A DNA stretch of 26,515 nucleotides from Candidatus Woesearchaeota archaeon (GTDB lineage: Archaea; Nanobdellota; Nanobdellia; Pacearchaeales; GW2011-AR1). Positions 14,596 to 22,268 of this stretch are shown here, one piece after another (the first letter of the stretch is position 1; each line of letters begins with the position of its first letter). The stretch covers positions 1-26,515 of the forward strand of contig CAYUGD010000002.1 of assembly GCA_964444275.1 (NCBI GenBank). The letters are read 5' to 3'. The notes under the pieces are model-generated. The model had not been told where the DNA came from. It searched no databases and saw nothing but the letters and a program-made list of their open reading frames with translations. The translations under genes and the position numbers were made by a program.

Positions 14596-14688
14596 GCAAT
14601 AAAATCTAAATAATTTTGCTTATAAAGTTTTCTTATTTTCACTAAAATATTAACAAATCTTTAAAAACAAACTTTCTTTTTTTTGTCA

Positions 14689-15381
14689 ATGAAAACAAAG
14701 TTAAAAGACCAGAAAACACTTCTCGGAGTTGACGACGCGGGTCGAGGACCTGTGATTGGCCCGATGGTTCTTGCAGGATGTCTGATTGATTCTAAGACGA
14801 GAGATGAATTCAAAAAAATCGGCGTGAGAGACAGCAAGCAACTTACACAAAAAAGGCGCGAGTTTCTGGAAGAAATAATCAAGAAAAAAGCAAAAGCCTT
14901 TGAGGTTGTTGTTTTAAATCCAGAGGAAATAGATAAGAGAAATAGTGAAGGGATAAAACTTAATGAAGTAGAAGGATTGGCTGCTGCGGAAATAGTTAAC
15001 AGAATAAATGACGGGAAAGAAAAAATAAAAGTGATAATAGATTGTCCCTCACCCAATAGAACCAGCTGGAGAGACTTTGTTCTTTTAAAAATAGAAAATC
15101 TCTCGAATTTAGAAATCGCCTGCGAACACAAGGCAGACAGAAATCACGTTGTTGTCGGGGCTGCTTCTATCCTGGCAAAAAGTGAGCGTGAGAGGCAGAT
15201 GGATAAGTTAAAGAAAATATATGGAAAAGATATGGGCTCGGGCTACAGCTCTGACCCCCGAACTAAAAAATTCCTCGAAAAAAACATAAAAAATCACAAC
15301 AACAAAGGGATATTCAGAAAAACCTGGAGCACATGGAAAAAAGCAAGCCACAAATCCAAACAGAAAAAGCTTTTTGAGTAA
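14689..15381 (+). CDS. rnhB: Ribonuclease HII
   Basis: GVDDAGRGPVIGPMV, GVRDSKQL, IIDCP, EHKADRNHVVVGAASILAK and GSGYSSDPRT. ATG14689 is preferred because TTTAAAAA ends 22 nt upstream. Confidence 0.95.
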   Translation: MKTKLKDQKTLLGVDDAGRGPVIGPMVLAGCLIDSKTRDEFKKIGVRDSKQLTQKRREFLEEIIKKKAKAFEVVVLNPEEIDKRNSEGIKLNEVEGLAAAEIVNRINDGKEKIKVIIDCPSPNRTSWRDFVLLKIENLSNLEIACEHKADRNHVVVGAASILAKSERERQMDKLKKIYGKDMGSGYSSDPRTKKFLEKNIKNHNNKGIFRKTWSTWKKASHKSKQKKLFE

Positions 15382-15419: not shown

Positions 15420-18299
15420 ATGTACATTAAAAAACTGGTGATGAAGGGTTTCAAGAGTTTTCCCAAAAAAACAGAGATTCCTTTTATGCCTGGGATAAAC
15501 GTGATTCTTGGACCTAACGGCAGCGGCAAGTCAAATATTTCAGACGCGATATGTTTTGTTCTGGGGCGACTTAGTGTAAAATCAATGCGGGTCGCAAAAG
15601 CCAAAAACCTGATTTTCATGGGAACAAAAGCAGCATCTCCTTCAAAAGAAGCAAGTGTCGAACTGGTCTTTGACAATTCTAACAAAACTTTTTCTCTTGA
15701 TAAAAAGGAAATCTCAATAAAAAGAATTGTGAGAAAGAGCGGGCAGAGCATCTATAAAATAAATGATGAGAAAAAGACAAGACAGGAAGTTCTGGCATTA
15801 CTGGCTCAGGCAGGGATAGACCCTCAAGGATTTAACATAGTCCTACAGGGCGAGATTCAAAATTTCGTAAGAATGCACTCGGAAGAAAGAAGACAAGTAA
15901 TCGAGGAAGTTTCAGGAATTTCTGTCTACGAATCGAAAAAACAAAAATCGCAGAGAGAGTTAGAGAAGACAGAAGAAAAACTTAAGTCAGTCAATTCGGT
16001 CCTCAGAGAAAGAACTTCTTATTTGAATAATCTAGAAAAAGAAAGACGGCAAGCCCTCAAATACAAAAAATTGAAGGAAGACGTAAAAAGATTGAAAGCA
16101 AGTATAATTTTTTATGGCCTCAAAAAGAAAAGAAAAGAATCCAAATTAATTAATAAAAAAATGCAGGAAAAAGATTCTGCGCTTGAGAAAACAAAAAAAT
16201 CTCTAGCAGATATTGAAACAGACATAAAAAATCTTAAGGCAAAAGCGGACAAAATTAATTCACAAATTCAGGGTTCTGCAGGCGTAGAGCAGGAGAGATT
16301 AAATCAGGAAATTGCAAATCTGCGAGCAGAACTTTCAGGAATAAATGTAAAACTCGAGAATCAGGAAACCAAACATAATAATTTATCAAAACAGAAACAA
16401 GAGCTCCGAGAAGCGATAAAAAAAGCAGAGAAGTCTATTAATGAACTGCAGAGAGAAAGTAAAGAAGCCCTGACGGAAAAGAAAAAATCGCAGGAAGTGG
16501 AAGAGAAAAAAAAGATTCTTGAAGAAATTGACGAGCAACGCAAAAAATTTTATATGACCAAGTCCAAGCTTTCATCTTTGAAAGAAAGAATCCGCGACAA
16601 AGAAATCTCTCTTAAAAATTACAATAACGAAGCCGATTCTCTTGTCCGGCAGTCAGAAGAGATTTCATTGGAAATTTTTGACCCAAAATCAAATCGGAAA
16701 AGACTAGACAAACTTAAAACTCTTTTCGCCGAGAAAAAAGAAGCCCTAAGCAGACTTTTGAAAAGAGAAATCGAACTCGAGAAGACTACTTCTGTCAATG
16801 AGTCCGAAATAGAAAATCATAAAAAAATCCTTGGGAAAGTTTCAAAGCTTGACGTCTGTCCTGTTTGCAAAAGTAAGATAACACCCGAACATTTGAAAGA
16901 AATAGAAAATGAATTTTTACCAAAGATAAAAAAACTTGAGAAAGAGGTGCAGGATTCTGACAGGGAATTGAAAATAATTTATCAAAAGAAAGAAATACTT
17001 ACTAAGGACATAGAGCAACTTACTGAGAAGATTTCCAGAACAGAGTCGGATATAAGTAAAATAAAAAGTATGAATGAAAAGAAATCGCAGATAAAAAAAC
17101 TTAAGGAAAAATCCGAGGAGGTTGAGAAAGAGTTGGTAGAGTTGATTAAGAAAAGAGAAAAGTTTGAAAAAATTCTTGAAGCCAGTTCAAACATTGAAAC
17201 AAAGTACGAGACTCTAAAAATTGAGATTCAGGAGATTTCTTCAAGGACAAAAGAGAACTTAAGTTCAGAGGTTGATTTCAAGAAAAGGGAGTTTGAGCGT
17301 TTGAAAATTTCTTTGAAACAGGCGGTGATAGACGACGAGGAAGTGAAAGAAGAGGTTGAATCTTTGAAGAAAATTGTTGAGGAGAAAGAGAAAGCACTAA
17401 CGGAAAAGAGGAGGCAGGAGGAAATTCTCAGCCAGAAATTTAAGAAGTTCATTTCTGAGAGAGATTCTATTTATTCCCAGGTGAGAGAAAAGGAATCCGA
17501 GGTCTTGGAACAACAGCACAAAATTCGTATGACAGAAGATGAAATTAACGAGTTGAAGATAGATAGGGCGAGAGTTGACGCAGAGACAGAGAACCTTGAG
17601 ACAGAGATGCTTGAATTTGAAGATGTTAGAGATAAGATAATTAAGAAAAAAAGCAAAGAGTCTCTTTCCGAAAAGCTTGCCAAAGTTCAGGATATTCTTT
17701 CAAGAATCGGGAGCGTGAACCTCCGCTCGCTGGAAGTTTATGACTCTATAAAAAAAGAATACGATTCAATAAAAGAAAAGGCAGAGATAATTTCCAAGGA
17801 AAAAGAAGGCATTTTGAAAATAATTGAGGAGATTGACAAAAAGAAGAAGAGGGCCTTCCTTAAAACGATGAAAACTTTGAACGAACTTTTCTCAAGGAAC
17901 TTTTCGCAATTAAGTATCAAAGGGCATGTTTTTCTTGAGCTTGAGAACAAGAAGGACCCTTTTGAACATGGCTCAGGCGTTCAGATAATTGTTAAAACAG
18001 GCCACGGAAAATATTTTGATGTGAAATCTCTGTCCGGCGGCGAGCAGACACTTGTGGCTCTCTCACTCATTTTTGCAATTCAGGAATACAGCCCTTATTA
18101 CTTTTATCTGCTCGACGAAATTGACGCAGCTCTTGACAAGAAAAACTCTGAGCGCCTCGCGGGTTTGTTAAATAAATATATGCAAAAAGGCCAATACATA
18201 GTTATCACACACAATGACGAAATAATCTCAAAAGCCACGAACCTTTACGGAATAAGCATGCACGACGGCATAAGCAAGATTGTCAGCTTGAAGGTTTGA
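15420..18299 (+). CDS. smc: Smc-family chromosome segregation ATPase, atypical: short, no hinge, central CPVC
   Basis: Smc-type head: YIKKLVMKGFKSF, Walker A GPNGSGKSN, DAICFVLG, Q-loop IVLQGEI, IGSVNLRS, signature LSGGEQ and Walker B/D-loop YLLDEIDAALD. Long coiled coils, with CPVC at residues 480-483 of 959. Confidence 0.85.
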   Translation: MYIKKLVMKGFKSFPKKTEIPFMPGINVILGPNGSGKSNISDAICFVLGRLSVKSMRVAKAKNLIFMGTKAASPSKEASVELVFDNSNKTFSLDKKEISIKRIVRKSGQSIYKINDEKKTRQEVLALLAQAGIDPQGFNIVLQGEIQNFVRMHSEERRQVIEEVSGISVYESKKQKSQRELEKTEEKLKSVNSVLRERTSYLNNLEKERRQALKYKKLKEDVKRLKASIIFYGLKKKRKESKLINKKMQEKDSALEKTKKSLADIETDIKNLKAKADKINSQIQGSAGVEQERLNQEIANLRAELSGINVKLENQETKHNNLSKQKQELREAIKKAEKSINELQRESKEALTEKKKSQEVEEKKKILEEIDEQRKKFYMTKSKLSSLKERIRDKEISLKNYNNEADSLVRQSEEISLEIFDPKSNRKRLDKLKTLFAEKKEALSRLLKREIELEKTTSVNESEIENHKKILGKVSKLDVCPVCKSKITPEHLKEIENEFLPKIKKLEKEVQDSDRELKIIYQKKEILTKDIEQLTEKISRTESDISKIKSMNEKKSQIKKLKEKSEEVEKELVELIKKREKFEKILEASSNIETKYETLKIEIQEISSRTKENLSSEVDFKKREFERLKISLKQAVIDDEEVKEEVESLKKIVEEKEKALTEKRRQEEILSQKFKKFISERDSIYSQVREKESEVLEQQHKIRMTEDEINELKIDRARVDAETENLETEMLEFEDVRDKIIKKKSKESLSEKLAKVQDILSRIGSVNLRSLEVYDSIKKEYDSIKEKAEIISKEKEGILKIIEEIDKKKKRAFLKTMKTLNELFSRNFSQLSIKGHVFLELENKKDPFEHGSGVQIIVKTGHGKYFDVKSLSGGEQTLVALSLIFAIQEYSPYYFYLLDEIDAALDKKNSERLAGLLNKYMQKGQYIVITHNDEIISKATNLYGISMHDGISKIVSLKV

Positions 18300-18747
18300 T
18301 TTTAAATTCCTCTCCCTCAATCTGTTTCCAGTATATCTCTGTGACTAAACTATAAAGTTCACTTATGGGGTGATTTATTACTTTTGAATCTGAATAAAAT
18401 TTTTCTATGTATTTACTACATAATTTATAGATAAAATATAAGGCGCCGTTAGGAGTGTTTGTTAGAGTAAGCCATTCTAGTTTTCCAAACTTGTAGTTAA
18501 ATGTCTCTGGTATCTCTTTCCAAAAATTTTTCAAATTTTTTTGCGACCGATTTTTTTGGAGAATATTTCCTCTGGATTTTTCTTTTTCAAATTTATGTTC
18601 ATTAAATAAAGGGTATATCTCTTTTTCAAACTTATTTTTTATATAATTTATTAACCATCTGCTTTCTTCTGATATGGCTCTTTCTATAATCTTGTCAATT
18701 CCATAATTAATAGAATTAGATATTGCTCTTTCCTTTTCATTTATCAT
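18283..18747 (-). CDS. Hypothetical protein (AT-rich ORFan)
   Basis: 154-aa ORF. TTTATAAA (18776-18769) ends 22 nt before the ATG. It overlaps the smc 3' end by 17 nt; no recognisable motif. Confidence 0.6.
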   Translation of the reverse strand: MINEKERAISNSINYGIDKIIERAISEESRWLINYIKNKFEKEIYPLFNEHKFEKEKSRGNILQKNRSQKNLKNFWKEIPETFNYKFGKLEWLTLTNTPNGALYFIYKLCSKYIEKFYSDSKVINHPISELYSLVTEIYWKQIEGEEFKIKPSS

Positions 18748-21047: not shown

Positions 21048-22268
21048 CTAGTAATAACTTTCGCTGAATTCTTCAGTTTTTTCAGGCTTTTTTCCGAGCA
21101 AGACAATTAGAACAACCAGCAATACAATAAAGATTATTGCCAGAACAATTGTCAAGACAACGATTGGGCTTGTAACTGTTCCATCAACTGTTTCTGTGAA
21201 GCTAACTGTTTCAACGAGCTTTCCGTCCATTCCGAAAACACTTACAGAATAAGTGTGTGTTCCGGAAACGTCAGAATCAGCATCTACTATCACAGTTTTG
21301 CTTGAACCTGCAGGAACTGAAACAAGAGTCTCAGACAAACTTACAGTCACATCATCTGTTGACTGAGGAACAAGTCTGTAAACAACGATTTCGTTTGTAG
21401 GGTTCACAATCAAAAGCTTTCCGTCAGAAACGATGAAGTTTCCGTCAGGGAAAGAGTTCTTTGTGACAAGCTGGACTGCTTTGCTTGAAACAGTATCTTC
21501 ATTTTCTACCTCTACTTCAAGCGCATAAACACCTGGCTCAGCATCATACGGCATTTGAAGGAAAATTCTTCCTGTAACAGTGTCTCTTTCATCTTCAAAA
21601 CACTTTCTTGTAATGTTGACGCCCCAGTTTTCTTCAGCAGATTCTGCTTCATCATCGCATCTAAGAGCGACAATGTCTCCGAAAAAAGATGTTCTTTCAA
21701 CACCCAAAGCAGATACTTTTGCTGTTACGAACAAGTCTTCCAAGTCGTTGTAACCAAGGTTCTTCAGAACAATGTCAACCGGGAAAAGTTCTCCGGCGTT
21801 AACTTTCTGAGGAACTTCTACAGACAAAATGTCCACGCTGTACGATTCTCTCTGAATCCTTAGAGTGTAACTTTCTGAAGTTTCGTAACCGCTTCCGCTT
21901 ATATCGATGTTAAGACTTGCATCGCCGCTAAGCGAATCTCTAAGGTCAAAAGGAACCTCAAGGACAAGTGTCTTGTGGTATCTGTTTCCGGCTTCAACAT
22001 CAAAAAGAGATGTTTCTGCGTCCACGTCTTTTCTGTCGCCTTCAAGCTCTACTTCAATTGTAACATCCTGCGTGTTAACAAGTGCATCAAATTCAACTCT
22101 TACTAAAATTGTTTCTCCAACAACTATTGAAGCATTGTCATTAACGTCAATTCCGTTAACTTCAACAGTAATTGGGTCTTCTGCAATTTCAGCAGCGCTT
22201 ACAGTGTTGGCTACAAAGAGTACGCCTACAAGCACCATGAAAAAAACCAAAAGTTTTTTCATATTCAT
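21048..22268 (-). CDS. Cell-surface / S-layer-like Ig-fold protein with signal peptide and C-terminal TM anchor
   Basis: Signal peptide KKLLVFFMVLVGVLFVANTVSA. Acidic beta-rich repeats (DIVLKNLGYNDLEDLFVTAKV, APGVYxLEVEV). Strong C-terminal TM followed by KKPEK. The S-layer label is an inference. Confidence 0.65.
   Translation of the reverse strand: MNMKKLLVFFMVLVGVLFVANTVSAAEIAEDPITVEVNGIDVNDNASIVVGETILVRVEFDALVNTQDVTIEVELEGDRKDVDAETSLFDVEAGNRYHKTLVLEVPFDLRDSLSGDASLNIDISGSGYETSESYTLRIQRESYSVDILSVEVPQKVNAGELFPVDIVLKNLGYNDLEDLFVTAKVSALGVERTSFFGDIVALRCDDEAESAEENWGVNITRKCFEDERDTVTGRIFLQMPYDAEPGVYALEVEVENEDTVSSKAVQLVTKNSFPDGNFIVSDGKLLIVNPTNEIVVYRLVPQSTDDVTVSLSETLVSVPAGSSKTVIVDADSDVSGTHTYSVSVFGMDGKLVETVSFTETVDGTVTSPIVVLTIVLAIIFIVLLVVLIVLLGKKPEKTEEFSESYY

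Follow-up and report, generated by a model that had tools for sequence, protein, structure and literature searches.

A natural Smc of Pacearchaeota with a Rad50-type hook in place of the hinge

Canonical Smc proteins are about 1150–1200 amino acids (aa) long and dimerise via a hinge domain; Rad50 and SbcC carry a CxxC zinc hook at the tip of their coiled coil. The two kinds of apex have been exchanged in the laboratory: a Bacillus subtilis Smc with the Pyrococcus furiosus Rad50 hook for its hinge supported normal growth, with a proper arm length still needed (PMC5344682), and in the converse swap Rad50 was functional with the MukB hinge (PMC6969161). The ‘hinge-less’ SMC proteins of marine Actinobacteria were called ‘a new kind of biology’ (Environ Microbiome 2025, PMC12153180), and a survey of archaeal SMC proteins counts the DPANN group among the lineages with ‘canonical aSMC’ (PMC8665677). 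Here we describe an smc gene from a stretch of 26,515 nucleotides (nt), hereafter the window, of contig CAYUGD010000002.1 (assembly GCA_964444275.1; GTDB Nanobdellota; Pacearchaeales; GW2011-AR1). According to the listing of its open reading frames (ORFs), the ORF at 15420–18299 (+) has an ATG start and encodes a 959-aa protein. In our reading, to which we give a probability of roughly 0.8, this is the smc orthologue of Pacearchaeota (DPANN), in which the hinge of about 160 residues has been replaced by a Rad50-type CPxC apex of about 27 residues. The parts of the gene, by window position, are as follows.

15420–18299 (+): smc gene for a hinge-less, hook-bearing Smc of 959 aa; Pfam SMC_N 6.4e-48 over residues 2–952; TIGR02169 532 bits, in two stretches.
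15420–15929 (+): N-terminal head half, residues 1–170; SMC_prok_A 214.8 bits versus 60 for Rad50; Walker A GPNGSGKSN at nt 15510–15536; Q-loop Q143.
15930–16844 (+): N-terminal arm helix, residues ~171–475, from the AlphaFold2 model; conserved neck 168–213; helix breaks at 203–215, 344–352 and 418–425.
16845–16892 (+): predicted zinc-hook loop, residues 476–491, SKLDVCPVCKSKITPEH; CPVC at nt 16857–16868; Rad50_zn_hook in 23/23 family fragments; 1L8D the best PDB match.
16893–17786 (+): C-terminal arm helix, residues ~492–789, from the AlphaFold2 model; breaks at 589–591, 607–612, 732–745 and 761–769.
17787–18299 (+): C-terminal head half, residues 790–959, with the stop codon; SMC_prok_B 162.8 and SMC_prok_A 161.4 bits versus 35 for ASRP and 29 for Rad50.
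18030–18047 and 18102–18137 (+), within the C-terminal head: signature LSGGEQ and Walker B/D-loop FYLLDEIDAALD, respectively, with the H-loop at H931.

The protein has no hinge. Pfam gave no SMC_hinge (PF06470) match in the window protein, and the hinge motif G-x5-7-G-x3-GG was found neither there nor in any hook-type relative; most relatives of about 1100–1200 aa carry GDLxExSGAMxGG, and in the hinge-type control P0153 the domain was recovered at residues 517–634 (3.3e-33). In a MAFFT E-INS-i alignment of 12 hook-type with 14 hinge-type relatives, window residues 463–489 (about 27) lie opposite the hinge region of the sister proteins (about 160 aa; about 505–665 of P0153), and the hook-type arms are about 33 residues shorter on the N-terminal side and about 16–21 on the C-terminal side. 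This alignment defined the boundaries of the replacement; pairwise BLASTP between the two types slides along the coiled coil and leaves them undefined. The hinge is absent, not degenerate.

What stands in its place was traced by sequence and by predicted fold. CPVC occupies residues 480–483 (nt 16857–16868, TGTCCTGTTTGC), at 0.50 of the protein length, and its two cysteines are, together with Cys45, the only ones in the whole protein. The AlphaFold2 model of the full protein (monomer, 116 homologues; mean predicted local distance difference test, pLDDT, 75.5, and about 90 over residues 400–600) predicts a helix at 426–475, a 13-residue loop at 476–488 and a further helix at 489–588; the apex fragment modelled alone gave the same helix–loop(13 residues)–helix with a pLDDT of 93.7. 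Rad50_zn_hook (PF04423) matched all 23 apex fragments of the family that were scanned alone (best 5.1e-8). With the apex-fragment profile, the best PDB match was 1L8D, the P. furiosus Rad50 hook (E 0.003), whereby CPvCkskitpeh aligned with P. furiosus CPVCGRELTDEH and the Thr and His after the CxxC were equally spaced. Among NCBIfam models the fragment matched archaeal Rad50 models at their midpoints and ASRP only, and no SMC model, and its best Foldseek match was chain 1l8d_B, the Rad50 zinc hook (template modelling score, TM, 0.79; probability 1.0). Pfam, the PDB sequence profile, NCBIfam and the fold all allow a Rad50-type hook to be recognised in the apex.

The first-pass annotation of this DNA, made from the letters of the sequence, had described a 959-aa protein with condensin-type head motifs and a midpoint CPVC flanked by continuous coiled coil, without a globular hinge or glycine motif. 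The length, the motifs and CPVC were all recovered at the places it gave, the missing hinge was confirmed down to the roughly 27 residues opposite the sister hinge, with no sign of a degenerate one, and the predicted helix on both sides of the 13-residue loop agrees with the coiled coil.

Both head halves are unambiguously of the Smc type. The ATPase motifs (Walker A, Q-loop, LSGG signature, Walker B, D-loop and H-loop) are all present and invariant in the family; they and the other head motifs start at residues 10 (GFKSF), 31 (GPNGSGKSN), 42 (DAICFVLG), 764 (GSVNLRS), 871 (LSGGEQ), 880 (ALSLIFAIQ) and 895 (FYLLDEIDAALD), and G31, N33, G34, G36, K37, S38, N39 and Q143 are invariant N-head residues in the homologue alignments. 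Of the NCBIfam models, SMC_prok_A (TIGR02169) scored 532.1 bits with the full protein, the best Rad50 model 121, ASRP 133 and arcadin-4 52. Residues 2–475 are colinear with positions 1–480 of the 1165 in TIGR02169, so that the whole N-terminal arm is Smc-like. The same ranking was obtained with each head alone: for the N-head (1–170), 214.8 bits for SMC_prok_A, 60 for Rad50, 43 for arcadin-4 and 27 for ASRP; for the C-head (790–959), 161–163 bits for the SMC models, 35 for ASRP and 29 for Rad50. A sequence search of PDB placed the Pyrococcus Smc head first (5xei, 4.8e-103) and the Rad50 heads at about 1e-13. The AlphaFold2 model shows a Smc head and helices 168–475 and 489–831, whose interruptions are paired (203–215 with 732–769, and 343–356 with 607–618) at the sites expected for a joint and an elbow. 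With the full model, Foldseek placed condensin Smc4 and Pyrococcus Smc heads on top (5xei, 5xns, 4i99; TM by target 0.73–0.90), and the first Rad50 entry came at rank 12. The heads, which the first-pass annotation had taken for Smc, thus held up against Rad50, ClsN/ASRP, arcadin-4 and RecN (215 and 161–163 bits versus at most 60 for any other model), and its term ‘chimeric’ is justified at the domain level, with Smc heads and arms and a Rad50-type hook.

Several other identities were rejected on these scores. For a Rad50 orthologue, the heads gave 60 and 29 bits with Rad50 versus 215 and 163 with Smc, and the arms align with Smc; for membership in ASRP/ClsN, model NF045487 gave 133.3 bits versus a cutoff of 300 and the heads 27 and 35 bits; for arcadin-4, the full protein gave 52 bits and the N-head 43.

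The hook is conserved wherever this architecture was found. A search of 5.8 billion proteins gave a list of the 120 best homologues (61–100% identity), all of 935–963 aa except three intein-bearing alleles, most of those with a named source being SMC from Candidatus Pacearchaeota or Nanoarchaeota; CP[VIL]C stands at the same position in 120/120, a constancy far beyond chance, and the conservation of the CxxC in orthologues, on which the earlier annotation had made its case depend, holds in every hook-type cluster representative, the lowest identity being 38%. A HMMER scan over 1.84 billion cluster representatives added some 20 full-length hook-type clusters, down to 38–39% identity, with relatives of about 1100–1200 aa beginning at about 500 bits. 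CPxC was found at the midpoint in all hook-type clusters (with F, L, V, T, M, I or K as x) and was kept in 139/139 full-length relatives checked. Across positions 288–717 of 22 cluster representatives, to 38% identity, C480, P481 and C483 are the sole invariant residues; in the same set, conservation is dense in the heads, the neck and the C-terminal strand. CPxC-x4-T-x2-H is the family consensus, invariant among close homologues. From Walker A to the first cysteine there are 446 residues in 101 of the 139 relatives, and from there to the signature motif 386 or 388 in 113 of them. Invariant cysteines and near-fixed arm lengths are what one would expect if the apex is functional and the length of the arm is tuned.

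Overall, the distinct sequences with the hook architecture number well over 100; they come from NCBI, JGI, ENA and Logan assemblies, fall into many 50%-identity clusters and lie on contigs of up to 608 kb. In databases these proteins go simply by the name ‘chromosome segregation protein SMC’, and they escape the equivalog models. Among the matches listed from the contig scan with the hook-family alignment, most were bacterial Smc picked up through generic patterns (DEIDAALD, GPNGSGK), and they give no species census of the hook type. Two hook-type Smc proteins, P0006 and P0030, are labelled ‘Patescibacteria group bacterium’ and ‘Bacillota bacterium’ by NCBI; probably these are DPANN contigs that were mis-binned or mis-classified. 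The hook-type homologues P0023, P0031, P0040, P0122 and P0128 (1465–1487 aa) contain an intein of some 525 aa, inserted within the Walker A P-loop (GSGK[S]/C...HN/SN, slashes marking the junctions); LAGLIDADG and intein-splicing Pfam domains are recorded for P0023, P0031 and P0040.

In a neighbour-joining tree of the heads (336 columns, 115 sequences, drawn without a Rad50 outgroup), all hook-type proteins and four shorter derived proteins form one clade with a bootstrap of 96/100. Its sister clade bears hinges, and the named members of that clade are Candidatus Woesearchaeota. Gene order is also partly shared: IleRS is encoded upstream of smc at hook-type loci as well as at one Woesearchaeota hinge-type locus. 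The simplest reading is that the hook-type protein is the Smc orthologue and that a single hinge-to-hook replacement took place in the Pacearchaeota stem. The hook is the derived state, because the hinge is common to bacterial, archaeal and eukaryotic SMCs. As for its source, an archaeal Rad50 or ASRP may have donated the hook, or it may have arisen by convergence. The CPxC-x4-T-x2-H spacing shared with Rad50 and the hidden Markov model matches lead us to favour capture, on sequence scores that are small.

The next gene upstream of smc in the window is the following.

14683–15381 (+): RNase HII gene, conserved upstream neighbour of hook-type smc; Pfam RNase_HII 3.6e-45.

Besides the window, RNase HII stands directly before smc on the same strand in loci L001, L003, L085, L089 and L090, an adjacency that spans lineages whose Smc is only 38–39% identical to the window protein. 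It could reflect an operon, or a functional link between replication/repair and Smc. In L090, a Pacearchaeota-like contig, the gene upstream of smc for a T2SSE-family (type IV pilus/archaellum-type) ATPase (L090:1962–4991) is also intein-bearing.

A number of results weigh against our reading of the gene as a hook-bearing Smc orthologue. The window's own apex scored 1.4e-4 with Rad50_zn_hook, i.e., 22.1 bits versus a gathering threshold of 24.3, and the match became visible only with the apex scanned alone; of the Pfam pattern foreseen by the first-pass annotation, SMC_N present and SMC_hinge absent stood as proposed, and the hook domain was recovered in this restricted form (23/23 in the family). 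The Foldseek E-value for the hook was weak, 0.07, which is to be expected of a short helical hairpin. The full protein fell below the NCBIfam equivalog cutoffs (532.1 versus 729.4 for TIGR02169, 512.5 versus 567.35 for TIGR02168) because the hinge is missing; of the formal marks of a Smc, the hinge domain and the equivalog score are lacking, and the split ATPase head, the Smc-type head scores and the Smc-like arm are present. The head tree, as aforementioned, has no Rad50 outgroup. Zinc binding and hook-mediated dimerisation are suggested by analogy with 1L8D. Finally, a search up to 10 kb from smc, in the window and at eight further hook-type loci, brought up no gene for ScpA, ScpB or another kleisin.

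With these reservations, the hook-bearing Smc may be pictured to work as follows. After the hinge-to-hook replacement in the lineage ancestor, the chain would double back to form an antiparallel coiled-coil arm, some 300 residues long in each strand, that ends in an intact Smc ATPase head on one side and in the hook loop on the other. A permanent link between two chains would be made at their apices by one Zn2+ and four cysteines (Cys480 and Cys483 of each), as in Rad50, and the heads would come together and part with ATP in the manner of canonical Smc. In complex with the kleisin ScpA and with ScpB, the dimer would presumably entrap chromosomal DNA and translocate along it, and so take part in chromosome organisation. 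That such a design is workable follows from the engineered B. subtilis Smc(Zh), with which growth was normal.

A kleisin partner may be proposed from the conservation of the neck and cap regions. Pfam on all other ORFs of the window detected no ScpA, ScpB, Mre11 or SbcD domain, in line with the earlier annotation, which had seen neither mre11/sbcD nor scpA/scpB nearby. The ±10-kb neighbourhoods of the eight hook-type and of four Woesearchaeota hinge-type loci were assessed through precomputed Pfam annotation, and at one Micrarchaeota locus the ORFs beside smc were scanned. Neither ScpA nor ScpB appeared at the four Woesearchaeota loci or beside smc at the Micrarchaeota one, and phmmer/hmmsearch with the archaeal ScpA/ScpB of loci L005 and L010 gave no match among the ORFs of the collected loci. 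In the contig scan, scpA lies directly downstream of smc at an Asgard locus (with scpB) and at another archaeal locus. Since the hinge-type Woesearchaeota loci also lack ScpA/ScpB, an smc–scp adjacency is not the rule here, and its absence beside hook-type smc is uninformative. Supplementary tables of DPANN genomics papers contained nothing on ScpA, ScpB, Rad50 or Mre11 for Pacearchaeota. A 406-aa ORF at 21048–22268 (−) was considered as a divergent kleisin and rejected because of its signal peptide and C-terminal membrane anchor; it is probably a surface or S-layer-like protein. This ORF is kept near smc in L003 (62% identity) and in L001/L002, and weakly in the Woesearchaeota-like L087.

Within the hook clade there are relatives without a hook. 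P0141, P0142, P0143 and P0145 are 779–804 aa long, with heads 44–46% identical to the window Smc, and the two named sources among them are Pacearchaeota. They are nested separately in the clade, have neither CxxC nor hinge and match SMC_N only in Pfam; each arm is shorter by about 75–90 residues. These proteins seem to have lost the hook secondarily, and as their heads are intact, an apex bridge is not absolutely required in the lineage. Short Smc-like proteins were also met in candidate-phyla-radiation bacteria: among the contig-scan matches listed, L024:8166–10421, L075:3577–5853 and L076:10001–12379 (761, 769 and 810 aa), from two Saccharibacteria metagenome-assembled genomes and one unclassified bacterium, have neither the glycine-rich hinge motif nor a mid-protein CxxC. 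Hinge loss therefore seems to be recurrent in ultrasmall, reduced-genome lineages. A more far-reaching extension of our reading, which we consider doubtful, is that, given the highly reduced genomes of Pacearchaeota, one hook-bearing Smc would serve both chromosome folding and Rad50-like tethering, by hook–hook contacts between complexes or with the hook of Rad50 or ASRP, and that the apex was minimised stepwise from hinge to hook to neither, as in the 779–804-aa relatives. If true, no specific dimerisation domain would be needed for natural SMC function.

Other explanations of the gene fare less well. It may encode a Rad50-like ATPase for DNA-end tethering or repair, possibly replacing a lost Rad50, in which the hook would bridge between complexes and the partner would be a nuclease, not ScpAB. 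The apex is Rad50-type by every test, no ScpA/ScpB was seen in any of the hook-type neighbourhoods examined, and DPANN genomes are strongly reduced. However, the heads and arms are those of Smc, not Rad50; archaeal rad50 and mre11 are neighbours as a rule, yet no Mre11 or SbcD gene was found within ±10 kb at any of the nine loci (the window and the eight further hook-type loci). The IleRS neighbour is common to the hinge-bearing Woesearchaeota smc, and the neck and the C-terminal cap strand, which bind the kleisin in canonical Smc, are among the best-conserved parts. We consider this explanation unlikely.

A further possibility is an extra SMC-like paralogue, comparable to ASRP/ClsN (coalescin) or Sph, that exists beside a canonical Smc and has another role in chromosome compartments. 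A zinc hook is indeed found in the ASRPs, which are SMC-related proteins of archaea (PMC9389158), the match to the ASRP model reaches 133 bits, short of its threshold, and a second smc gene may exist elsewhere in the genomes. This match is nevertheless under the 300-bit cutoff and the heads give 27–35 bits versus 161–215 for Smc; the protein is 959 aa long versus 593 positions in the ASRP model, and its arm matches the Smc model along the whole length. The clade is sister to Woesearchaeota Smc, as an orthologue would be, with partly shared synteny, which makes a paralogue quite unlikely.

The CPxC might also form no intermolecular zinc bridge at all, being a structural turn or a redox-sensitive pair in a protein that dimerises through contacts of its arms and heads or acts as a monomer. 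The four relatives P0141, P0142, P0143 and P0145, nested in the clade, have indeed lost the CxxC and kept intact heads, but C, P and C are the sole invariants in about 430 arm residues down to 38% identity, and sequence and predicted fold fit the Rad50 hook, whose zinc-mediated dimer was solved as 1L8D; this is very unlikely. An assembly chimera, or a deletion of the hinge from an ordinary smc, would be conceivable for a single metagenomic contig such as the window, but is hardly credible and is refuted by the recurrence of the same architecture in independent assemblies, in well over 100 sequences and many 50%-identity clusters.

The remaining content of the window is that of an AT-rich archaeon's housekeeping region, with Pfam matches to ArgRS, IleRS, a DTD2-type deacylase, RNase HII, PCMT and aEF-1alpha; an AP-endonuclease-2-family protein (xylose-isomerase-like TIM barrel) and a Toprim-domain protein, probably a DnaG-type primase, are also encoded. 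A 154-aa ORF at 18283–18747 (−) is convergent with smc and overlaps its last 17 nt; it had no Pfam match and no counterpart was detected in related loci, and it is either lineage-specific or no gene. At the other end of the window, the ORF at 302–1096 (−, 264 aa) fuses a staphylococcal-nuclease domain to a lamin-tail domain and adjoins one at 1131–2900 (−, 589 aa) with repeated He_PIG/Ig-like domains; both are probably secreted or surface proteins, possibly with a role in nucleic-acid scavenging.

A full-text literature search, of incomplete coverage, returned no published description of a natural hook-bearing Smc. Given the engineered precedent, such a protein is not mechanistically shocking. 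It does, however, provide the SMC field with a lineage-wide natural experiment for a swap made previously by engineering only. SMC models disagree on whether the hinge does no more than clamp the dimer or takes an active part as a DNA-binding or gate element, and the sole evidence so far for bacterial Smc function without a hinge is one engineered B. subtilis chimera. The invariant cysteines, the fixed arm length and the intact heads and neck, kept throughout a widespread archaeal lineage, offer a natural argument that the apex fold is interchangeable and the arm geometry is not. These natural proteins, including the hook-less derivatives, are available for tests of DNA entrapment and loop extrusion without a hinge, and they present a concrete case of domain exchange between Smc and Rad50, or of convergence, within the superfamily.

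Compared with canonical Smc–ScpAB (TIGR02169/TIGR02168; 5XEI, 5XNS, 4I99), the window protein has the same heads, ATPase motifs, neck and cap strand, the same long antiparallel arm, broken at joint-like and elbow-like sites, and a housekeeping setting in the chromosome, but it carries a CPxC loop for the hinge, is about 200 aa shorter and scores under the equivalog cutoffs. With Rad50/SbcC it shares the CPxC hook at an antiparallel coiled-coil apex, with the CPxC-x4-T-x2-H spacing of P. furiosus CPVCGRELTDEH, whereas its heads are not Rad50-type, its arms are Smc and there is no Mre11 gene nearby. The ASRP proteins (ClsN/coalescin, Sph1/2; PMC9389158) are likewise archaeal members of the SMC superfamily with a zinc hook for the hinge, but form a separate, shorter family (NF045487 133 versus 300 bits; heads 27–35 versus 161–215 bits for Smc). 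As precedents, the engineered B. subtilis Smc(Zh) and the hook-less ‘hinge-less’ SMCs of marine Actinobacteria come closest. The latter (PMC12153180) are also natural SMC-clade proteins that have lost the hinge, but are bacterial and explicitly without a CXXC hook, whereas in the window type the hinge gave way to a hook; nearer to the actinobacterial case are the relatives from Pacearchaeota and from Saccharibacteria/candidate-phyla-radiation bacteria that have no hook. Smc(Zh) (2017, PMC5344682) joins a Rad50-type apical hook to the heads and arms of Smc, as the window protein does; it is a laboratory chimera in a bacterium, whereas the Pacearchaeota type is natural, archaeal, fixed in its lineage and under strong purifying selection.

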